From: a virus
Taxonomy: Duplodnaviria > Caudoviricetes
Strand: one strand, 5' to 3'
DNA: 49,259 nucleotides
Virus record (IMG/VR): IMGVR_UViG_3300009095_000020
Span: 1 to 49,259 of that record
Shown here: piece by piece, positions 8,117 through 36,914 of the stretch
How the letters are laid out: the number at the start of each line of letters is the position of its first letter
Numbering within the stretch: position 1 is the first letter of the stretch
Notes under the pieces: model-generated
Seen by the model: only the letters and a program-made list of their open reading frames with translations
Told to the model about the DNA's origin: nothing
Databases searched by the model: none
Program-made: the position numbers and the translations under genes

Positions 8117-8376
8117 GCACGCTCACCCTCGCCACCGCCGAGACGGCCGCCAGCGTCCTGCACCGGGCCGCCCGCCGCGTCTCCGCACCCATGAACGCCA
8201 GCCTGCCCGAAGCCTTCCGGCTCGCCACCCGCGACCCGAACCTCTCCCGGGCCGCCGTCCAGCAGCTCGCCCACACGCTGGGCTTGCACCCGCGCGACCT
8301 GCCGCTGTGGGACGTCACCCGCACCCGCACGGACGTGGCCGCCATCCTGCGCATCGCCGCGAGGAGGACTCGATGA
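8113..8376 (+). CDS. Hypothetical early protein
   Basis: GGAGG SD; ATGA overlaps. Confidence 0.7.
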   Translation: MSTLTLATAETAASVLHRAARRVSAPMNASLPEAFRLATRDPNLSRAAVQQLAHTLGLHPRDLPLWDVTRTRTDVAAILRIAARRTR

Positions 8377-17275: not shown

Positions 17276-17523
17276 CCACCACCGCCCCGCCGTGGATCGG
17301 CTGGATCCGCCCCTGGTACCCCGGCGGCGAAGACGTCACCGCAGGCCTGTTCGGCGAACCGCCCATCTTCATCGGCCACATCTACCCCGACTGCGAAGAC
17401 CTCCTCGCCGTCGACTCCGACCCGCGTGAGGGCTCCGGATGGCTCGACCCCGCCGCGCCCGGCACCTGCCAGACCTGCCTCTACCGCCACAACAGCGACG
17501 ACGACGAGGGAGACACCCAGTGA
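17272..17523 (+). CDS. Hypothetical protein with H..C...CxxC
   Basis: GAAGGGA SD; ATGA overlap. Confidence 0.6.
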   Translation: MTTTAPPWIGWIRPWYPGGEDVTAGLFGEPPIFIGHIYPDCEDLLAVDSDPREGSGWLDPAAPGTCQTCLYRHNSDDDEGDTQ

Positions 17524-18608
17524 AACTCGCCATCGACCCCAAGCTGCTCGCCGACACGGTCGCCTGGACCGCCCGCGCCCTACCCCTCCGGTCCACCGTC
17601 CCCGTCCTGTCCGGCCTCCTGCTCGACGCCGCCGACGACCAGCTCACCGTGTCCGCCTTCGACTACGACGCCAGCGCCCGCGCCACCATCACCTGCGAAG
17701 TCGCCGAGCCGGGCCGCATCGTCGTCCCCGGACGGCTCCTCGCCGAAGTCGCCAAGGCCCTGCCCGACCGGCTGCTCGTCGACCTCACCGCCACCCGCGA
17801 CGAAGCCACCATCCGGGCCGGACGCTCCGAGTTCGCCATCCGCCTCCTCGACGCCGACGACTACCCCACCCTCCCGCAGCCGCCCCAGCCCGCCGGACAG
17901 ATCGACGCCGCCGCGCTCGCCGCCGCCGTCGCCCAGGTCCACCCCGCCACCAGCAACGACGACACGCTCCCGATGCTCACCGGCATCCGCCTCGACACCG
18001 ACGGAGAGACGTTCACCCTCGCCGCCACCGACCGGTACCGGCTCGCCGTCACCGACACCACCTGGACGCCCGTCGCAGCCCCGCTGTCCGCACTCATCCC
18101 CGGCAAGCACCTCCACGACATCGCCAAGAGCCTCGGCAGCGGGCCCGTCGGCATCGCCGTCAACGACGCCATGGCCGCCTTCACCACCGCCGACAGGACG
18201 AGCACCGTCCGGCTGCTCGACAACCAGTTCATCGACTACCGCGCCCGCGTCACCATGGACACCACCATCACCGCCACCGTGGACGCCCCCGCCCTCGCCG
18301 CCGCCGTCAAGCGGGTCGCCCTCGTCGCCGACCGCAAGAGCACCGCCATCCGGCTCGCCTTCACCAAGTCGGAGGTAACCGTCCGCGCCGGAGGCGACGA
18401 CATCGGCCGCGGCAACGAAACCCTCGACTGCACCCTCGACGGCGACCCCATCGAGATCGCCTTCCAGCGCGCGTTCCTCCTCGACGCGCTCGGCGCCATC
18501 CCCGGCACCGCCCGGATCGGCATGACCGGGCCCGTCCAGCCCGCCCTCTTCCGCTCGGAGGACGGCAGCCACCAGCAGATCGTCATGGCGCTCCGGATCA
18601 CCACATGA
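17520..18608 (+). CDS. dnaN: DNA polymerase III beta sliding clamp
   Basis: VAWTARALP..PVLSG, SAFDYD, GRLLAEV, DDTLPMLTG, ATDRYRL, AVKRVALVA; full three-domain length. Confidence 0.95.
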   Translation: MKLAIDPKLLADTVAWTARALPLRSTVPVLSGLLLDAADDQLTVSAFDYDASARATITCEVAEPGRIVVPGRLLAEVAKALPDRLLVDLTATRDEATIRAGRSEFAIRLLDADDYPTLPQPPQPAGQIDAAALAAAVAQVHPATSNDDTLPMLTGIRLDTDGETFTLAATDRYRLAVTDTTWTPVAAPLSALIPGKHLHDIAKSLGSGPVGIAVNDAMAAFTTADRTSTVRLLDNQFIDYRARVTMDTTITATVDAPALAAAVKRVALVADRKSTAIRLAFTKSEVTVRAGGDDIGRGNETLDCTLDGDPIEIAFQRAFLLDALGAIPGTARIGMTGPVQPALFRSEDGSHQQIVMALRITT

Positions 18609-26315: not shown

Positions 26316-27722
26316 GTGAGCGTGTGGACGGCCGCCGCCGCCGCTCTCCGGCCGCGCCCGTACGTCGGGGATCCGGCGGGCTGGGTGGAGGGCCGGCTCC
26401 GGCAGGTGGTGTGGTCGAAGCAGCGGGAGATCATGGAGTCGGTGCGGGATAACCGCCGCACCGCAGTCCGCAGCGGCCACGGCGTCGGCAAATCCCACGT
26501 CGCGTCGGCGGTGGCGTCGTGGTGGCTGGACACGCACGAGCCCGGCACCGCGTTCGTCGTCACCAGCGCGCCGACCTACGCGCAGGTGAGGGCGATCCTG
26601 TGGCGGTACATCCGGCGGATGCACGCGGCCGGGAAGCTGCCCGGCAGGGTGAATCAGACCGAGTGGCACTTGGGCGGGGAGCTGGTGGCGTTCGGGCGTA
26701 AGCCGGCCGACCACGACGAGTCGGCGTTCCAGGGGATTCACGCCCGGTACGTGCTCGTCATCTTGGACGAGGCGTGCGGGATCCCGGGGCAGCTCTGGGT
26801 GGCGGCGGACGCGCTGACAACGAACGTGGATTGCCGGATTCTGGCGATCGGGAACCCGGACAACCCGGCGTCGGAGTTCCGGCGGGTGTGCCAGCCCGGC
26901 TCCGGTTGGCATGTGATCGGCATCTCCGCGTTCGACTCGCCGAACCTGACCGGTGAGCGGGTGCCGGCCGACGTCGCCCAGGTGCTCGTGTCGCGCGAGT
27001 GGGTGGAGGAGAAGCGGGAGGAGTGGGGCGAGGACAACCCGCTCTACAAGTCGAAGGTGCTCGGCGAGTTCTCCGAGGATTCAGAGTGGCAGGTGGTCCG
27101 TACGAGCGACGTGGCCGCGTGCCGGATCGACCCGGAGAGCAAGCCAGCCGCCGCTGATCTGCTGCCGGTGGAGCTCGGCGTGGACGTGGGCGGTGGCGGT
27201 GACGAGACGGTGGTGCGCGAGCGCAGGGGGCGGGTGGCTGGCCGGGAGTGGCGGGCGCACACGGATCGGCCGGAGAAGATCGCACCGTTGATCAAGTTGG
27301 CGATCCGGGAGACGGGCGCAACCAAGGTGAAGATCGACAGTATCGGGGTGGGGTTCGGCGTGATCGGCGAACTCCGGAACGATCGGACGCTGCGCGGCGT
27401 CCAGGTGGTCGGGGTGAACGTCGGCGAGAAGGCGAGCAGGCCGGACAGGTACGCGAACCTGCGCGCCGAGCTGTGGTGGGAGGTCGGCCGGCTCATGTCG
27501 GAGCGGCGCGGCTGGGACCTGTCGAGCATGGAGAACGCTGACGCGACCGTCGCCCAGTTGCTCGAACCGCAGTGGGACACGGATCCGACGGGCCGGATCC
27601 GGGTGGAGAAGAAAGAGGAGATCATCAAGCGGTTGGGGCGGTCGCCGGACAACGCGGATGCGCTACTGCTGGCCTTCTACGGTGGCGGGCCGAGGGCCCG
27701 TATCCGCACGCTGGGGCGGTGA
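26316..27722 (+). CDS. terL: Terminase large subunit
   Basis: Walker A SGHGVGKS, Walker B VILDEA, IGNP, nuclease GVDVG..GD, RSPDNADA. Confidence 0.93.
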   Translation: MSVWTAAAAALRPRPYVGDPAGWVEGRLRQVVWSKQREIMESVRDNRRTAVRSGHGVGKSHVASAVASWWLDTHEPGTAFVVTSAPTYAQVRAILWRYIRRMHAAGKLPGRVNQTEWHLGGELVAFGRKPADHDESAFQGIHARYVLVILDEACGIPGQLWVAADALTTNVDCRILAIGNPDNPASEFRRVCQPGSGWHVIGISAFDSPNLTGERVPADVAQVLVSREWVEEKREEWGEDNPLYKSKVLGEFSEDSEWQVVRTSDVAACRIDPESKPAAADLLPVELGVDVGGGGDETVVRERRGRVAGREWRAHTDRPEKIAPLIKLAIRETGATKVKIDSIGVGFGVIGELRNDRTLRGVQVVGVNVGEKASRPDRYANLRAELWWEVGRLMSERRGWDLSSMENADATVAQLLEPQWDTDPTGRIRVEKKEEIIKRLGRSPDNADALLLAFYGGGPRARIRTLGR

Positions 27723-27724
27723 CT

Positions 27725-27830
27725 GTGACGCTGGGTGGCTGCATGTTCATGCACGCCCCGCCCGTTGCGTCCTCCCCCGTCCGGTTTGCCTGCCACCCGA
27801 CGGGCCCAGTTCATGCAGTCGCCGCGTCAC
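27725..27830 (+). ncRNA. Candidate structured RNA or multi-stem element after terL
   Basis: Nested pairings 27725-31/27824-30, 27734-45/27812-23, 27760-67/27798-805. Confidence 0.35.
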
Positions 27831-27951
27831 CGCAGGCCAACGCGATGCTAGACCCTACAGTGCACACATTCTGTACGGTTACCAACAGGTAACTCACGCG
27901 CGGGACTTACGGACCGTCACGCCACCCTCTGATCTTCTTCATACTGGGGCA

Positions 27952-28467
27952 ATGGCATGGGAATGGGTCGCCCCCGTCGCGACAGCCCTCAGCGGCATGG
28001 TCGGCGTCGGCTTCACCTGGTACGCCGGACACCAAGGCCGGAAGCACGCCGAGCGAGTCGCGGACAAGTCCGCCTCCCACTCACTCGCGCAGGCCAGGGA
28101 GGCGCGGCGGGCTGATGCTTACATCGAGATCCTCACGCTGACGAACGGCATGACGGCGGCGGTCGGCGAGATCACCGCCATCTACAAAGACCGCGAGGAC
28201 CCGCCCCTTCCCGAGCTGGACAAGCAGGTAGCCGTCAGCGCCCTGGTCGGGCTGTACGGGTCACAGGAAGTGCGAGCCATCTACCGCGACTGGTTCCAGC
28301 AGGTGAGCAAGCTGCTGGACAACTACCGCGAGATCCAGGCGAACGCGAAGCGCGGCGGCGCAGACCGCGACCCTGGGCTGTGGAAGCAGCAGGGAGCGCT
28401 AGGTAAGGCAATGCGGGACGCGGCAGACCGGCTGCGGGACCAGATGAACCGCGAGCTGTCTACCTAG
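27952..28467 (+). CDS. Moron: single-TM helical protein, probably leaderless with its own promoter
   Basis: CATACT -10 at 27940-45, 6 nt before ATG; interrupts the terL-portal order. Confidence 0.75.
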   Translation: MAWEWVAPVATALSGMVGVGFTWYAGHQGRKHAERVADKSASHSLAQAREARRADAYIEILTLTNGMTAAVGEITAIYKDREDPPLPELDKQVAVSALVGLYGSQEVRAIYRDWFQQVSKLLDNYREIQANAKRGGADRDPGLWKQQGALGKAMRDAADRLRDQMNRELST

Positions 28468-28574: not shown

Positions 28575-28844
28575 GTGACAACGTTCACCGAGGCGTTCCG
28601 CACCGAGCGCGCCAACACGGCTCGCGCACCTCGCACGCCCCGGATCCCCCTCACCGTGCGCGCCGCCCGCTGGCTCGCCCGACGCCTCCCCGCCTGGGCC
28701 GCACTCCGCACCCTGCTGCTCAGCGTCGCGGGGTTCGGGATGCTGACCGCCGCCGCCTGGACACTCCACATGGCGGCAGGGCTCGCCGTCGGCGGCGTCT
28801 CCCTCCTCGTGCTCGAAGCCCTCTCGGGCGGTGACCGCCGGTGA
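28575..28844 (+). CDS. Small two-TM protein preceding portal
   Basis: Two hydrophobic helices; GTGA overlap with portal; start uncertain. Confidence 0.7.
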   Translation: MTTFTEAFRTERANTARAPRTPRIPLTVRAARWLARRLPAWAALRTLLLSVAGFGMLTAAAWTLHMAAGLAVGGVSLLVLEALSGGDRR

Positions 28845-30859
28845 GGTCCCCCCTAGGAGCGCTGGCCCGCGCCGTCACCAACAAGGCGCCGGTGTCGTAC
28901 GCGAGCAGAGGCATCCGGCACGCACTCCCGTTCGGCGGCCGGAACGACGCCGTCTCCCAGATGCAGGCGATGGGCAACGTCGGCACCCTGTTCTCGATCG
29001 TCCACAGGACGAGCAATGCGACGTCGCAGGTGGATTGGAAGCTGTGGCGGCGGGCCGCCTCCGGCAAGGACGAGGACCGCAGCGAGGTGGCCTCCCATCT
29101 CGCGCTCGACATCTGGCGCAAGCCGAACCCGTTCATGCCGCGGCAGGAGTTCGTCGAGTCGACGCAGCAGCACGTCGACCTGACCGGCGAGGGCTGGTGG
29201 GTCGTGGCGCGGTCGCCGCGCATGCGGTCCATCCCCTTGGAGCTGTGGCCGGTGCGCCCCGACCGGATGATCCCGGTGCCGGACCCGAACGACTTCCTGG
29301 CCGGCTACATCTACGTCAGCCCGGACGGCGAGCAGGTGCCGCTCCGCCTCGACGAGGTCATCCAGCTCCGCATGCCCAACCCGTTGGATCCGTACCGCGG
29401 CATGGGCCCGGTGCAGAGCATCCTCGCCGAGCTGGACGCGACCAGGTACAGCGCGGAGTGGAACCGCAACTTCTTCGTCAACTCGGCGCTGCCCAGCGGG
29501 ATCATCGAAGCCCCGAACAACCTCACCGACGACGAGTTCGACGACCTGCGGGACCGGTGGGAGGAGCAGCATCGCGGGGTCGCCGCCGCGCACAGGGTGG
29601 CGATCCTCGAAGGCGGGCTGCGCTGGGTGGACAGGCGGTTCACGCAGCGGGACATGCAGTTCGCCGAGCTGCGGCAGATCTCGCGTGACGTGATCCGGGA
29701 GGCGTTCGGCATCCCCGCCTTCGCCTTGGGTGAGGTCAGCGACGTGAACAGGGCGACGGCCGAAGCCAGCAAGGCGATGTTCGCCGAGCATCTGACCATC
29801 CCGCGCCTGGAGCGGATCAAGGCGGCGCTCAACCACGACTTCCTGCCGATGTTCGGCGACACCGCCCGGGATCTGGAGTTCGATTTCGAGGACCCGATCC
29901 CGCCGGACGCCGAAGCCCGCGACCGTGAGCGGACGTCGAAGGCGACCGCGGCCAAGCTGTACGTGGACGCGGGCTTCACGGGCGAGAGCGTAGTCGAGGC
30001 GCTGGAGCTCCCGGACACGCTCGTCTGGAAAGAACCCGCCCCGGTGCCGCCCCCGATTCCGGCTCCCGCCCCTGCCCCGCCCCCGGACGCCCCCGCAGAT
30101 GTGCTGCTGCGTGCGCTCCGGGCGCAGACCGTGACTGACCAGGCTGGTGAGGACTGGCAGGAACGGCTCGACGCTCTCCTTGACGAGTGGCAGAGCGTTT
30201 CTGCGGGGCAGCGGCGGGAGCTGGTCGACCAGATCGCACGGCTCGTGGATGAGGCCGACCGGGAAGGTCTCGCCGCGCTGGCCGCCTCCAGCGGTGTGGC
30301 TGCGGCGCTGCTGGAGGCGGCTATGGCCGCGCAGGCGGAGGCGGCCGCGCAGCGGGTGGTGGAGGAGGCTGCCGGGCAGGGCGTCGAGATCTCGCCTGCC
30401 GAGGTGGCCGGCGCTCTGGCGGTGCTGCTTGCCGGGAGCGCGGCTGCGACGGCCGCTCTTCTCGCTGCTGGGCTTGCGGGGGCGGCGGGCAGGGCGGCGC
30501 TGCGGTTGTGGGCGCCGGGTGATGAGGGCGGCACGGTGGCTGGGCGGGTGCTGGCCTATCTGGAGAGTCTGACGGATGCGAGCCTGCGCACCGAGCTGGG
30601 CGGGGCGTTGTGGGCGGCGGAGCAGCAGGGGCGTTTCGCCACCCTCGAACTGGCGGAGGCGGAGGGCAAGGGCGCCCTCTGGTACGAGGCGGTCGAAGAG
30701 AACGACCCGAACACGTGCGTGCAATGTCGGGATATCGACGGCGAACGTTTCGACACGTTGCGGGACGTGCGCGAGTCGTATCCGCACGGCGGCTACTTCG
30801 CCTGCTTGGGGACCATCCGTTGCCGGGGCACGGTCGAACCGCGCTGGAGTGAATCATGA
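28841..30859 (+). CDS. HK97-family portal fused to a MuF-like minor head domain
   Basis: DLTGEGWW, LWPVRPDRM, GMGPV, FVNSALPSG, IREAFGIP; Pro linker; C-terminal DPNTCVQC...DG...CLG..RCRG. Confidence 0.9.
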   Translation: MRSPLGALARAVTNKAPVSYASRGIRHALPFGGRNDAVSQMQAMGNVGTLFSIVHRTSNATSQVDWKLWRRAASGKDEDRSEVASHLALDIWRKPNPFMPRQEFVESTQQHVDLTGEGWWVVARSPRMRSIPLELWPVRPDRMIPVPDPNDFLAGYIYVSPDGEQVPLRLDEVIQLRMPNPLDPYRGMGPVQSILAELDATRYSAEWNRNFFVNSALPSGIIEAPNNLTDDEFDDLRDRWEEQHRGVAAAHRVAILEGGLRWVDRRFTQRDMQFAELRQISRDVIREAFGIPAFALGEVSDVNRATAEASKAMFAEHLTIPRLERIKAALNHDFLPMFGDTARDLEFDFEDPIPPDAEARDRERTSKATAAKLYVDAGFTGESVVEALELPDTLVWKEPAPVPPPIPAPAPAPPPDAPADVLLRALRAQTVTDQAGEDWQERLDALLDEWQSVSAGQRRELVDQIARLVDEADREGLAALAASSGVAAALLEAAMAAQAEAAAQRVVEEAAGQGVEISPAEVAGALAVLLAGSAAATAALLAAGLAGAAGRAALRLWAPGDEGGTVAGRVLAYLESLTDASLRTELGGALWAAEQQGRFATLELAEAEGKGALWYEAVEENDPNTCVQCRDIDGERFDTLRDVRESYPHGGYFACLGTIRCRGTVEPRWSES

Positions 30860-31857: not shown

Positions 31858-33261
31858 GTGAGTACACCCGTCCTGCCTAAGGACATCCCCATCCCGGCCT
31901 CCTCGGAAGAGCTGGCCGAGTTCATGGGCGACCCCGGCAAGTACCGCCCGGTGCTCGCCAGCACCGAGGCCCTGACCGAGTTCATCAAGGCGTACGGGCA
32001 GAAGCTCCAGGGCGAAGGCACCGACCTGCACCGCGCGGTCGCCGCCGAGACCCAGAAGCAGCTCGCCCAGTACCTGAAGGACAAGGACGTCGACCCGGAG
32101 AACGCCGAGCGGATCTCCCGGCTGAACCTCGACCCGCAGGCGCCGACCGGCCGGGCGGGCAAGGCCAGCATGCTGACCTCGTACGGGCAGGGCGCCGCCT
32201 ACAACAAGCACGCCCCCGGCACGGTGATCGACGGCAAGTTCGCCACGGCGGTCGACTACTTCAAGGCGATCTGGCACCTGGACGAGTCGCCGGCGGCGGT
32301 CGCGCGCCGTACGGAGATCCGTAACGCGGGCTCGTCGGTCGTGCCGAGCGATGGCGGGTTCCTCGTGCCGGAGCGGCTCCGGTCGCAGCTGCTGGAGATC
32401 GCGCTGGAGATGGCCGTCGTGCGCTCCCGCGCGACCGTCGTCCCGATGGACTCCGCCAGGGTGCCGTTCCCGACGATCGACGTCACCACGAACCGCAGCT
32501 CCCTGTTCGGCGGCATGATCGCCTACTGGGGCGAAGAGTCCGCGGCTCTCACCGAGTCGGACCCGAAGTTCGGCAGGGTGACGCTCGACGCGAAGAAGCT
32601 CACCGGCCTGTCGGTGGTCCCGAACGAGCTGCTGCAGGACAGCATCATCAGCTTCAGCGCGCTGATCGAGCGGCTCTGGCCGATGGTCCTCGCCTTCGAG
32701 GAAGACAGCGCGTTCATGACCGGCCCGGGCGCCGACCGGCCGCTCGGCTTCCTCGGCTCCGGCAACACGGCAGCCGTCGCGGTCGCGGCCGAATCCGGTC
32801 AGCCTGCCGCGTCGATCGTGTACGAGAACATCGTCAACATGTACGCGAGGATGCTCCCGTCCTCGCTGCCCCGCGCTGCGTGGATCATCTCGCCGGACAC
32901 CATTCCGCAGCTGTTCACCATGGCCCTGTCCGTCGGCACCGGCGGCTCCAGCATCTTCGTCGTCAACGCGGCCGGCCCCGGCCCGATGACGCTGTTCGGC
33001 CGTCCGATCGTGGTCACGGAGAAGGCGAACACCCTCGGCAGCCGCGGCGACATCGCGTTCGTGGACCTGTCCTACTACCTCGTCGGTGACCGGCAGAGCA
33101 TGACCGCCGCCAGCTCGACGGACTGGAAGTTCGGGAACGACCAGACGGCGTACAGGATCATCCAGCGGGTGGACGGCCGGCCGTGGATCAAGTCGGCAAT
33201 CACCCCGAAGAACAACGGCAACGCGCTGTCGCCGTTCGTCGAGCTGGCCGCCCGGTCCTAA
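31858..33261 (+). CDS. HK97-fold major capsid protein
   Basis: SDGGFLVPE, WGEES, VPNELLQDS, LFGRPIV, RVDGRP. Confidence 0.92.
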   Translation: MSTPVLPKDIPIPASSEELAEFMGDPGKYRPVLASTEALTEFIKAYGQKLQGEGTDLHRAVAAETQKQLAQYLKDKDVDPENAERISRLNLDPQAPTGRAGKASMLTSYGQGAAYNKHAPGTVIDGKFATAVDYFKAIWHLDESPAAVARRTEIRNAGSSVVPSDGGFLVPERLRSQLLEIALEMAVVRSRATVVPMDSARVPFPTIDVTTNRSSLFGGMIAYWGEESAALTESDPKFGRVTLDAKKLTGLSVVPNELLQDSIISFSALIERLWPMVLAFEEDSAFMTGPGADRPLGFLGSGNTAAVAVAAESGQPAASIVYENIVNMYARMLPSSLPRAAWIISPDTIPQLFTMALSVGTGGSSIFVVNAAGPGPMTLFGRPIVVTEKANTLGSRGDIAFVDLSYYLVGDRQSMTAASSTDWKFGNDQTAYRIIQRVDGRPWIKSAITPKNNGNALSPFVELAARS

Positions 33262-33274
33262 GGAGGAACAGATC

Positions 33275-33703
33275 ATGGCAGGACAGGAAGGGCTGGGCAG
33301 GCTGTTCAACGTCGTGGCGCAGGCCAGCGGCGTGCACATCCCGCTCACGAACGCGGCCGGGGTCACGTTCGTGTGCTTCGAGGACGACGGCTCCCAGATC
33401 ATCACTCTCAAGGAGTCGATCGGCGGCCAGTCGGAGCAGAACCTGGCGATCATCGACAAGGTGTACAAGGGGCCGGGCGTCGGCGGCACCTGGACGAAGG
33501 TGACGCAGGCGGCGGCGGCCACCTACGACAACGCCGACGACACCACCAACGACGCCGTCGTCCTCTACGTGCCGGCCACGTCCCTGTCGGACGGCTACGA
33601 CTGCGTGGAGCTGACCAACGACGGCGGCAACCCGGTCATCGCGATCATCCACGACCTCGCCTACCAGCGGGCGCCGGAGAACCTCGCTAGGAGCGTGGTC
33701 TGA
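33275..33703 (+). CDS. Putative capsid decoration/cement protein
   Basis: Beta-rich; directly after MCP; AAGGAGG SD. Confidence 0.55.
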   Translation: MAGQEGLGRLFNVVAQASGVHIPLTNAAGVTFVCFEDDGSQIITLKESIGGQSEQNLAIIDKVYKGPGVGGTWTKVTQAAAATYDNADDTTNDAVVLYVPATSLSDGYDCVELTNDGGNPVIAIIHDLAYQRAPENLARSVV

Positions 33704-34188
33704 TGACGACGATGATCAAGGGGAACGAGCTGCGGGCGATCGCGCTCGGCCGCGGCCCGGTCAGCAAGGCCGTCCCGACCCTGTCAGCGAACACGTTCCA
33801 GCTGTTCACGGTGACCGGCGGCCGGGTGCTGATCACCGCCCTGTGGGGTGTGTGCACCACGTCCATGACCGGCGCGAACACCGTCAATCTCCAGACGGAC
33901 CCGACGGCGGGTGACACGGTCGTCGTGGTCACCGCCACCGACCTGGGCACGACCGACACGGCGGCCGGGACCACGATCGGCGTGACCGGCAACATCGCCG
34001 ACCCGGCGACCAACGGCGCGAACTTCAACACCGTGTTCGTCAAGGGCGGCCTGGCGCTGCGGGACCTGGTCGTCACGACTGGCGAGGTCGAGTCGGTGGT
34101 GACCGGCGGCGGCGCGAACGGTGGCATCACCTGGTACTGCTGCTGGGTGCCGCTGGACGACGGCGCTGAGCTGGTGGCGGCGGCCTGA
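33703..34188 (+). CDS. Putative virion structural protein
   Basis: Thr/Gly/Val-rich; TGATG coupling. Confidence 0.55.
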   Translation: MTTMIKGNELRAIALGRGPVSKAVPTLSANTFQLFTVTGGRVLITALWGVCTTSMTGANTVNLQTDPTAGDTVVVVTATDLGTTDTAAGTTIGVTGNIADPATNGANFNTVFVKGGLALRDLVVTTGEVESVVTGGGANGGITWYCCWVPLDDGAELVAAA

Positions 34189-34898
34189 TGTCGCTGCTGG
34201 TGTGCTCGGGCTGCTCGACGCGGTACGCGCCAGGCAGTCCGGCCTGCCCGCACTGCGGCGGGGTCGAGGCCGTCGAGGAGGGGACGGCAGTGTCTCCGGG
34301 GCCGCTGCTGCCCTTCCTCGACCTCTCCTGCACGACAGGCGGGTGCGCGGCCGAGGGGGTCGTGCGGCGGGTGTTCCTGCGCCAGCCGACCCCCGGCGTG
34401 CTGGAACGGCCGGCCTACCTGTGCTCAGGGTGCGGCGCTGTCATGCGGGAGGAAGAAGCCATGCCGAAGATCAGCCGCCTTGGTGGGGCCACGAACGCGG
34501 CGGCCGACCGCGAGCGGGAGGGCGACGGTCGGCCGCCGGCCAGCGACGTGTGCTCCAACTGCGGCAAGCCGTACAGCGAGTCTGCGTGCGGGATCTCGCA
34601 CGCGATGGTGGCGCACGAGCGCAAGCACCAGCTCGACGCCCCGAGCGAGGGCGACCAGGTGCCTGCTGACGGCACCCGGTCGGCGGAGGACGCCGACGAC
34701 AGCACGGGAGGGGAGGAGTCATCTCCTGGGAGCAGCTCCTCGACATCAGCCGCGAAGCCCAAGAACTCCGCCGCGACAAGGAAACCCGCCCCCCGGCGGC
34801 GTGCCCGAACGACGGCGAGCCCCTCCAGCCCGGCCCCAGAGGCGAGCTCCACTGCCCCTTCGACGGATGGATCTGGCGAGGCTGACCCAGCCTCCTAA
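34188..34898 (+). CDS. Multi zinc-ribbon protein with low-complexity tail (possible internal start 34461)
   Basis: CSGC..CPHC, C....C..CSGC, CSNC..C...H; GGAGG SD before MPKISR. Confidence 0.7.
   Translation: MSLLVCSGCSTRYAPGSPACPHCGGVEAVEEGTAVSPGPLLPFLDLSCTTGGCAAEGVVRRVFLRQPTPGVLERPAYLCSGCGAVMREEEAMPKISRLGGATNAAADREREGDGRPPASDVCSNCGKPYSESACGISHAMVAHERKHQLDAPSEGDQVPADGTRSAEDADDSTGGEESSPGSSSSTSAAKPKNSAATRKPAPRRRARTTASPSSPAPEASSTAPSTDGSGEADPAS
34721..34885 (+). CDS. Hidden 54-aa protein in the -1 frame, likely ATC-initiated (ISWEQLLDISREAQE...CPNDGEPL...LHCPFDGW)
   Basis: 47 of 54 codons end in G/C; paired CPxDG knuckles; GGAGG at 34707 and 34712; no in-frame ATG/GTG/TTG after the stop at 34669. 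Confidence 0.7.
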   Translation: MSWEQLLDISREAQELRRDKETRPPAACPNDGEPLQPGPRGELHCPFDGWIWRG

Positions 34899-34904
34899 CG
34901 AACT

Positions 34905-34942
34905 CCCCCGGGCGTCTGTCCACGGCTTAGGGCGCCCGGGGG
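34905..34942 (+). terminator. Stem-loop ending the head module
   Basis: CCCCCGGGCGTC / GGCGCCCGGGGG. Confidence 0.55.
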
Positions 34943-34992
34943 CACCAGCAGAGCCGTGAAGGCGCGGCGACGGCGGAGGGAGGTGCAGCAGG

Positions 34993-36063
34993 ATGGGCGT
35001 CTGGTACGCGACCAGGGAGACGGTGAAGAGCGCGCTCGACGCGGCGGAGACGGCGCGGAACAACGCGCAGGTCGACCGGGCTCTCGAAGCGTCCTCGCGG
35101 CTGATCGAGGGCAAGCTGCACCGCCGCTTCTACCCCGAGGTGAAGACGCTGTCCTTCGACTGGCCCAACGCGCAGCGCGCCCGATCGTGGCGGCTGTGGC
35201 TCGACCAGCACGAGGTCGTCGAGGTGACGGAGCTGACGGCGGGCGGGGTGTCGATCCCGACAGGTGACCTGCTGCTCTACCCGGCGTCGGGGCCGCCGTA
35301 CAGCCGGATCGAGGTCGACCTCGACTCCAGCAGCGCATTCGCCAGCGGGGACAGCCACCAGCAGGCGATCGACCTCACCGGCACGTTCGCGGGCTGCCGG
35401 CTCGACGAGGCCGCCGCGGGGACGCTGGCCGGCGCGGTGGCATCCGCCAGCGCCGCCACGGTCGATGTGACCGACGGGGCGGCGGTCGGGGTCGGCGATC
35501 TGATCCGCGTCGGTGACGAGCGGATGCTCGTGATCGGCCGGCGGATGCTCGACACCGGCCAGGACCTCGGCGCCGACCTGACCGCCTCCAACGCCGCCGT
35601 CTCGGTGTCGGTGACGGATGGCACCGCGTACAGCGTGGACGAGGTGCTGCTCATCGGCTCCGAACGCATGCTCGTCGTCGACATCGCCGGCAACACGCTG
35701 ACGGTGCGCCGGGCGTGGGACGGCAGCGTGCTGGCCGCACACACGGCGGGCGCCGATATCTATGCGCCGCGGACGCTGGTGGTGGAGCGGGGCGCGGTCG
35801 GTACCACGGCGGCCACGCATCTCGCTGCCGCGTCCGTCTACCGGCATGTTCCGCCCGGCCCCGTGAGCGCGCTGTGCGTGGGCTTGTCGCTGGCCCAGGT
35901 GTTGGGCGAGCAGTCGGGGTATGCGCGGCCGGAGTCGCGGAGCGGCGGCGGGTCGACGTCGGACAGCCGCCGTCGGGACCAAGAGCACGGGGTGGGGCTG
36001 GCCGCCCTGTGGAAGGCCGCGTATGCGGCGTGTGGGCGTAAGGCGCGGATTCGGGGGGTGTGA
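34993..36063 (+). CDS. Head-tail adaptor with inserted beta domains
   Basis: YATRETVK...ALEASSRLIE..LHRRF N-terminus; position after the head genes. Confidence 0.7.
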   Translation: MGVWYATRETVKSALDAAETARNNAQVDRALEASSRLIEGKLHRRFYPEVKTLSFDWPNAQRARSWRLWLDQHEVVEVTELTAGGVSIPTGDLLLYPASGPPYSRIEVDLDSSSAFASGDSHQQAIDLTGTFAGCRLDEAAAGTLAGAVASASAATVDVTDGAAVGVGDLIRVGDERMLVIGRRMLDTGQDLGADLTASNAAVSVSVTDGTAYSVDEVLLIGSERMLVVDIAGNTLTVRRAWDGSVLAAHTAGADIYAPRTLVVERGAVGTTAATHLAAASVYRHVPPGPVSALCVGLSLAQVLGEQSGYARPESRSGGGSTSDSRRRDQEHGVGLAALWKAAYAACGRKARIRGV

Positions 36064-36066
36064 GCT

Positions 36067-36459
36067 GTGTTTGAGGTGCATGCCACGGTCGACCTGGATG
36101 GGCCGCTGTTCGACGGCCGCGCCCCGCAGGTCATGGGCGAGTATGCGCAGGCGGTGGTGGATGACGTCGCCGAGCAGGGGTTCCGGGATATCGGGTTCAC
36201 CCTGGTGAGGGTGTTGAAGCATCCGACTGGCTACTACCAGAGCCAGATCAGGAACCGCCCGTTGGGGCCGAAGACGCGCGTGCTGTACGACAACAGGGTG
36301 ATCTACGGGGCGTGGCTGGAAGGCGTCGGCTCCCGCAACACGCCGGTCACCAGGTTCGAGGGGTATTTCACCTTCCGGCGGGTGACGTTCGCGCTGAACC
36401 GGAAGGCGAAGCCGATCGCCGAGATGACGCTCAGGCGGTTCCTGGGGAGGCTGCAGTGA
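36067..36459 (+). CDS. Putative neck/tail completion protein (HK97 gp10-like)
   Basis: TGYY...I, VIYGAWLEG motifs; synteny. Confidence 0.6.
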   Translation: MFEVHATVDLDGPLFDGRAPQVMGEYAQAVVDDVAEQGFRDIGFTLVRVLKHPTGYYQSQIRNRPLGPKTRVLYDNRVIYGAWLEGVGSRNTPVTRFEGYFTFRRVTFALNRKAKPIAEMTLRRFLGRLQ

Positions 36460-36914
36460 GCCTCAACACCAGCGCTGTCCTCGACGCCATCGTGAGCCAC
36501 GCCATGACGCTGGGGCTCTTCGAGACGGTGAACGCGCACGAGGTCGTGTCCGCGCCTGGTCACGGCCTGCACGCCGAGATCTGGGCCGACAACATCGCGC
36601 CCGTGCCGCTCGCGTCCGGGCTGCGGGTGACGGCGGCGCGTGTGGTGTGGACGGTCCGTATCCGGGGCAACGCCGACGCCCAGCCCAGGGACTTGGTGGA
36701 CCCGAACATGATGGCCGCGGTCGACGCGCTGATGGCCGCCTACTCGGGCGATTTCGACCTCGGCGGGCTGGTGCGGAACGTCGACCTGCTCGGGCAGACG
36801 GGCGTCGCCCTAGCAGCGCGGGCGGGCTATCTGCAGCAGGACGGCAAGGTGTTCCGGATCTACGACATCACCCTCCCTGTGGTGATCAACGACGTGTGGG
36901 AGCAGGTGCCATGA
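36456..36914 (+). CDS. Putative tail terminator
   Basis: DFDLGGLV motif; size and synteny; GGGAGG SD. Confidence 0.6.
   Translation: MSLNTSAVLDAIVSHAMTLGLFETVNAHEVVSAPGHGLHAEIWADNIAPVPLASGLRVTAARVVWTVRIRGNADAQPRDLVDPNMMAAVDALMAAYSGDFDLGGLVRNVDLLGQTGVALAARAGYLQQDGKVFRIYDITLPVVINDVWEQVP

Follow-up and report, generated by a model that had tools for sequence, protein, structure and literature searches.

The window, by which we mean the whole 49,259 nt stretch that was analysed, is a 49 kb virus record with genes for a portal, a ClpP-like protease and an HK97-type capsid. The capsid gene is followed by four small genes and then by a head-tail adaptor-like gene. Upstream of the adaptor lies an annotated gene, here called the outer gene. 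A second and shorter frame, the inner gene, ends with its stop at 34883-34885 and is contained entirely inside the outer gene's reading frame. The features of the locus are collected in Table 1.

Table 1. Positions in the window of the two overlapping genes and of the features that bear on them.
Feature	Position	Strand	Remarks
Outer gene, 236 aa	34188..34898	+	Zinc-ribbon motifs, MPKI-x(3)-GG motif, acidic linker, Ser/Thr/Pro/Lys tail over the inner gene
ATG of the MPKISRLGG motif	34461..34463	+	ATG or GTG before the motif in 64/70 ATC loci that have the motif; mean SD -9.9
Inner-frame TGA ahead of the ATC	34667..34669	+	
Shine-Dalgarno sequence (SD), GGAGGGGAGG	34707..34716	+	-11.4 kcal/mol; the outer frame reads GGE
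ATC, inferred start codon	34721..34723	+	Comparison across loci
Inner gene, 54 aa	34721..34885	+	Predicted helix 3-22 and CPxDG...CPxDG zinc ribbon
Polar tail of the outer protein, overprinted in the +1 frame	34722..34898	+	Ends 13 nt past the inner stop
Head-tail adaptor-like gene	34993..36063	+	PHROG 442, E 3.5e-7; conserved downstream neighbour

There is no ATG, GTG or TTG in the inner frame between the upstream TGA and the ATC, and GGAGG occurs twice ahead of the ATC, at 34707 and at 34712. Codons ending in G or C make up 47/54 of the inner frame, 39/53 of the annotated (+1) frame and 29/53 of the +2 frame. These points had been listed in a preliminary description of this DNA (a frame closed at 34669, no canonical start after it, tandem GGAGG, 47/54 GC3), and all of them are in the sequence. 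Across both strands of the window there are 1332 ATC or ATT sites, and 21 of them have an SD of -11 kcal/mol or lower together with at least 40 open codons. Only two of these 21 are without an upstream in-frame canonical start: the ATC at 34721 and one before gene 33275. The latter, at 33272, adjoins the ATG of that gene behind a strong SD and is probably ordinary. A Logan contig of run X1 spans the region with zero differences; X1 is possibly the source of the DNA, so this is not an independent reading. Runs X2, X3 and X5 cover only fragments of the region.

The inner family comprises 27 homologs of similar length, 357 viral stretches, 81 GTDB stretches and 326 metagenome stretches, and 765 clusters within a cut-off of E 0.001. 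Neither Pfam nor PHROGs has a name for the inner or the outer protein, and the ESM Atlas returned unnamed clusters only. The related loci are mainly in Streptomyces, Nonomuraea and other actinomycete genomes, and no plasmid match was found. Nearest-neighbour differences among the ATC loci are 573 synonymous and 305 non-synonymous in the inner frame, which also has 16 near-invariant columns. By this measure the inner frame is under purifying selection. The preliminary description had named synonymous change in this frame as support for the gene, which is what we see. Its conservation marks the frame at 34721-34885 as a real gene, one conserved among actinobacterial phages, and the adaptor lies downstream of the family in 117/125 non-redundant loci. 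The called homologs are informative about annotation. All but one of the 27 begin with M or V (26, the other being partial), which is consistent with gene callers missing the ATC form. Gene finders seem to overlook the gene in many such phages, including streptomycete prophages.

The first codon was compared across loci by alignment. The 125 non-redundant loci (160 pooled rows minus 35 near-duplicates, with L137 and L158 left out of the pooled start counts) have ATC in 76, ATG in 25, GTG in 15 and a longer or fused form in 9. The 80 IMG/VR loci, from a search that favoured Ile, have ATC in 46, ATG in 19, GTG in 9 and a longer N-terminus in 6. The 80 GTDB loci, searched with C-terminal patterns only and with seven rows assigned by hand, have ATC in 51, GTG in 12, ATG in 11 and something else in 6. 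The 79 metagenome loci, a set that keeps near-duplicates, partly overlaps the others and leaves out the window's own contig (L168), have ATC in 31, ATT in 3, ATG in 31, GTG in 3, a fusion in 10 and one other. GTC, CTC and TTC are never found at the start position in the 125 non-redundant and 79 metagenome loci. Outside the longer and fused forms this position exchanges only with start codons (ATC, ATG, GTG, ATT). The long fusion proteins have Gly at the equivalent position in 92 cases and Ile in 1 (116 scored of 120 listed), so Ile is not structurally needed there.

The sequence upstream agrees with a start at the ATC in most loci. An in-frame stop lies within two codons of it in 44/76 ATC loci, and a canonical in-frame start is absent upstream in the window and in 65/76. 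It must be said that in the other 11/76 a canonical codon lies in frame at a distance of 7-99 codons upstream, which counts against an ATC start. Two loci (L135, L161) keep the SD and the ATC with 5 extra N-terminal codons. All 35 separate, non-nested genes start with ATG or GTG. We argue from this comparison that the inner gene most likely starts at the ATC. A nested gene with an ATC start in the head module is what the preliminary description proposed, and conservation (76/125) supports it. It had also considered that the homologs might start with ATG; many do start with ATG or GTG, yet 76/125 have ATC.

The ATC is preceded by a strong SD. Its mean energy is -13.7 kcal/mol in 75 ATC loci compared with -4.75 at 8277 other ATC sites, the energies being taken against the anti-SD motif. 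In a paired test on 36 loci, with 40/76 ATC loci dropped, the SD is -13.2 at the ATC and -14.2 at the adaptor start (p 0.17). The SD before the ATC matches that of the adaptor in strength. Folding of the RNA around the start is not more stable than in shuffled sequences (z +1.9). The infC genes of 5/5 actinomycete genomes with related prophages read GGAGG-N4-ATC-AGC (L162-L166, G001-G005), and in two of the five the frame is closed shortly upstream without a canonical start. The window's second GGAGG has this same GGAGG-N4-ATC layout. AGY is the second codon in 34/76 ATC loci.

Next consider the outer gene. Its protein has 35 homologs, its Pfam zinc-ribbon matches are weak and below the cut-off, and its structure model is of low confidence (pLDDT 0.51). 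Some relatives of the outer gene begin at the MPKI motif, and the ATG at 34461 is a possible second in-frame start. The part that covers the inner gene behaves differently from chance. All 76 ATC genes overlap a +1 frame that is open throughout in 74/76, compared with 46/76 expected under a synonymous-recoding null (maximum 56 in 500) and 20/35 across the separate genes. The outer frame stops within 25 nt past the inner stop in 68/76, which compares with 2/76 for the +2 frame and 9/35 for the separate genes. The codons of the inner gene fit this open frame. Leu is CTC in 97% (n=341 codons) and Val is GTC in 96%, compared with 49% and 55% in adaptor genes. The third position differs between loci in 4% for Leu and 1% for Val, compared with 49% for Pro and 63% for Gly. 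Since Pro and Gly third positions vary while those of Leu and Val do not, the freeze at NTC is not the result of shared ancestry. Arg is CGA in 47% compared with 3% in adaptor genes. The rare codons CGA, GAA and GGA are enriched in the inner gene and give Glu, Lys and Asp to the outer tail.

Over 4385 residues of the ATC loci, the resulting tail lacks Trp and Tyr altogether and contains hardly any Cys. Its middle is basic (mean +4.5), hydrophobic residues are avoided, and the end is usually acidic. Site by site it changes almost freely (327 synonymous and 752 non-synonymous differences), so the constraint on the tail is compositional. We hold on these patterns that the outer Ser/Pro/Thr tail is under selection; in terms of sequence evolution, both frames of the overlap are shown to be constrained. 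The preliminary description called the annotated tail poorly coded, but the tail is no mere spill-over, being open in 74/76 loci with the NTC codons frozen. The start codon itself sits in both frames. The A of the ATC closes an outer S, P, V, T, K or R codon, while only 55/826 comparable codons end in A. The eight nested loci with ATG or GTG have Trp (7) or Cys (1) there in the outer frame, and in the ATT loci the outer Ser becomes Phe. In seven relatives the same outer gene comes to its stop at ATGA or GTGA, and in six of these seven it ends in what may be a SAP-like motif. The ATC is kept though the outer frame stops inside the gene in 2/76 non-redundant and 7/31 metagenome ATC loci.

The inner protein is predicted to be a helix followed by a Cys/Asp zinc ribbon. 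The AlphaFold2 model (pLDDT 86, pTM 0.45) has a helix at residues 3-22 and a two-knuckle ribbon. C28, C45 and D48 are invariant in alignment A2 and D31 is nearly so, while L134, L160 and L161 have Cys in place of a knuckle Asp. A possible ribbon of this kind had been suggested from the sequence alone in the preliminary description, and the model and alignment are consistent with it. The Foldseek matches to zinc ribbons are weak (E 1.4 and above); no PDB entry reached E 0.001, and BFVD yielded a single viral protein of 60 aa, unnamed, at 45% identity. Known zinc ribbons such as the TFIIB N-terminus, NudC and Trm112-like proteins have the two-knuckle beta-ribbon that is predicted here, but the knuckles of the inner protein are C-x-x-D, unlike theirs, and no Pfam or PHROG family covers it. 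There is a weak sequence match to the Rieske oxygenase SxtT (E 0.03). A Rieske 2Fe-2S identity was rejected: the protein has CPND and CPFD in place of CPHR and CPYH, and the histidines are absent.

The family occurs in three forms, as shown by the sequence comparisons: a separate ATG or GTG gene, the nested form, and a C-terminal module of long lectin-like proteins. In the last form the module sits at the C-terminal end of 116/116 scored proteins, many of which have DUF4082 or LamG heads. Such fusion genes follow the same outer gene in three loci (L042, L091, L137). A search for fusion loci found 1 locus, and it was without the module. More than one knuckle module is present in 25 of the 120 fusion proteins listed; P0030, P0031, P0033 and P0046 have two or three tandem copies. 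Because of the gene position and the C-terminal fusions to lectin-like domains, we argue that the inner product is probably a low-copy virion anchor with optional cargo. The same position and fusions speak against the late regulator suggested in the preliminary description. The adaptor is a candidate binding partner of the inner protein, going by gene order.

We think it probable, though well short of certain, that this is a nested conserved gene whose own translation, probably at a low level, comes from SD+ATC, with the ATC likely kept for sparing the overlapping protein. Any NTG in the inner frame would put TGN (Trp, Cys or a stop) into the outer tail. This would freeze the inner Leu and Val codons at CTC and GTC, and would hold the start at ATC, the NTC codon nearest ATG. 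The ATC would then be the intersection of two demands, its first base held at A and its third lying within the NTC freeze. The origin may have been a stop-start junction in which ATGA became ATCA. This one G>C change would remove the outer stop, giving read-through, and weaken the inner start at the same time. The product would be an anchor needed in few copies. It would dock on the virion, with the neck next to the adaptor as the probable site, and in relatives it would carry a DUF4082 or LamG head. Sensitivity to IF3 would be a side effect. Most probably the ATC is the only usable start compatible with both frames, and not a dedicated sensor of IF3. Against this compromise it must be noted that the outer constraint has exceptions, since some nested loci tolerate ATT, ATG or GTG.

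The main competitor is that the ATC is kept for regulation. Here SD+AUC would work as in infC, with output rising when IF3 is scarce (late infection, stress) or simply held at about 1-2%. AUC initiation in E. coli is put at 1-2% of AUG in the available text of bioRxiv 10.1101/063800, and infC, with its AUU or AUC start, is described as the target of IF3 autoregulation in what is accessible of PMC5499595. The shared GGAGG-N4-ATC layout fits this idea. So does the count in non-redundant read-through loci, where ATC outnumbers ATG or GTG 74 to 5 with canonical starts reachable, and the ATT variants and the ATC loci with truncated tails favour regulation somewhat. We nevertheless regard it as unlikely, if worth taking seriously. 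Regulation does not predict that the nested gene should be cleared of NTG at its other codons too. Among the 76 ATC loci none has the outer frame ending at the start, and the 35 separate genes all have ATG or GTG. The SD is also no stronger than that of the ATG-started adaptor. The preliminary description had proposed a low or IF3-tuned level; that the ATC exists mainly for IF3 tuning is not supported, because the overlapping frame by itself clears NTG from the whole inner gene. A combined version is a little more speculative still, and we doubt it: across a widespread family of temperate phages of actinobacteria, SD+AUC under an overprinted frame would be a host-state sensor in which IF3 level and outer ribosome traffic set the amount of a virion anchor that in sister phages bears interchangeable sugar-binding heads.

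The other readings fare worse. A -1 frameshift from the outer gene would fuse the outer N-terminal part to the anchor module, which is C-terminal in 116/116 scored natural fusions. Shifts of -1 can be promoted by an internal SD lying about 10 nt upstream, as in dnaX and IS911, and we counted this in favour of a frameshift. However, the XXXYYYZ heptamer is absent in 73/76 ATC loci and a run allowing three-base re-pairing in 71/76, the in-frame stop within two codons (44/76) stands in the way, and the position swaps with start codons only while real fusions have Gly there. The preliminary description saw no canonical slippery heptamer, and indeed no slippery site is conserved; its alternative of a frameshift fusion finds no conserved signal across the 76 ATC loci. 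A frameshift route to the inner frame is unlikely on this comparison, and the fusion it would make is improbable as the explanation of the locus. We have equally little confidence in a reading that accepts the ATC start but makes the tail merely harmless, with outer read-through keeping ribosomes on the mRNA across a gene that is itself weakly translated, so that the downstream neck and tail genes would be protected from Rho polarity or decay. The outer stop close behind the inner stop is what this predicts, and a tail that avoids hydrophobic residues and tends to end acidic suits it. On the other side, the enriched CGA, GAA and GGA codons and the basic middle suggest a positive function for the tail, and some metagenome loci truncate it inside the gene. 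Sequencing error, a private mutation or a dead remnant can hardly be entertained. There are 76 non-redundant ATC loci whose proteins are 30-92% identical, in six named genera and under purifying selection in the inner frame; this conservation refutes all three.

An adaptor tree, with 17/125 loci left out, has 15 start-state changes of which at least 11 are forced, and a tree of the small protein has 23. Only 2 independent well-supported pairs are available, so a pairs test is without power on co-evolution. The direction of change is inferred, and phage mosaicism blurs both trees. The likely before and after states are all found in nature: ATGA-coupled, nested with ATG or GTG, and nested with ATC or ATT.

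Nested phage genes are familiar from phiX174 E in D and lambda Rz1 in Rz, and overprinting in general likewise makes two proteins from one stretch. The newer frame of overprinted viral pairs is disorder-rich according to the accessible part of PMC8227390. The locus departs from usual overprinting in that the hidden inner frame appears older, the annotated outer tail appears newer, and the second frame appears to set the start. A conserved near-cognate start behind an SD is shared with infC (AUU/AUC), pcnB (AUU) and Deinococcus dnaA (ATC). Unlike these, the inner gene belongs to a phage late operon and starts inside another selected frame. The orfA and orfB frames of IS911 overlap in -1 phase with a slippery motif present. 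The orfB frame, as far as the sources available to us describe it, has an AUU start as well as frameshift access and resembles the inner gene as an overlapping Ile-codon frame in a mobile element; unlike IS911, the present overlap is complete and has no conserved slippery motif. For Deinococcus dnaA, initiation at ATC was shown by N-terminal MS, according to the portion of PMC2830850 at hand. ATC starts, nested genes and overprinting are thus each already known separately (PMC8227390, as far as its accessible part goes). The new element is a conserved complete overlap whose second frame appears to set the start codon. The locus gives a clear and replicated example of a rare start codon whose choice seems to be dictated by another reading frame, and it makes regulation and constraint, as reasons for keeping non-canonical starts, directly testable against each other. 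A conserved gene of the head module comes to light as well, together with an unnamed, putative anchor module common to hundreds of lectin-bearing phage proteins.

Our literature searches, mostly of papers open without subscription, found no description of the inner family or of the overlap, and the accessible text of the Samy paper (PMC11302927) and of the Dagobah paper (PMC7650747) has nothing on the inner gene. The only clear family match among 50,697 GenBank phage records is HUN42_00015 of Streptomyces phage Dagobah (QMP84393.1), a hypothetical protein of 49% identity (E 2e-6) encoded before the adaptor. It differs from the inner gene in having an annotated ATG start and an ATGA overlap with a different upstream gene, and it is not nested.

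The surroundings of the overlap offer some minor observations. No promoter-like site and no + strand terminator-like site was found within 33000-36500, and no shared hairpin 3' of the inner gene is evident by eye in 16 folded loci. A GC-rich inverted repeat lies at about 34906-34942 in the window; it is also in L005 and is not general. The gap between the inner gene and the adaptor (34886-34992 in the window) ranges from 0 to about 2300 nt among relatives, which suggests a site that takes up extra genes. The portal gene (28841-30859) encodes about 310 extra C-terminal residues past the Pfam portal match. Shortly upstream of it an ORF at 27658-28467, without a Pfam match, may be an extra gene that was inserted there. 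The phage also encodes, at 17439-18608, a full DNA polymerase III beta clamp (PF00712, E 4.5e-39).
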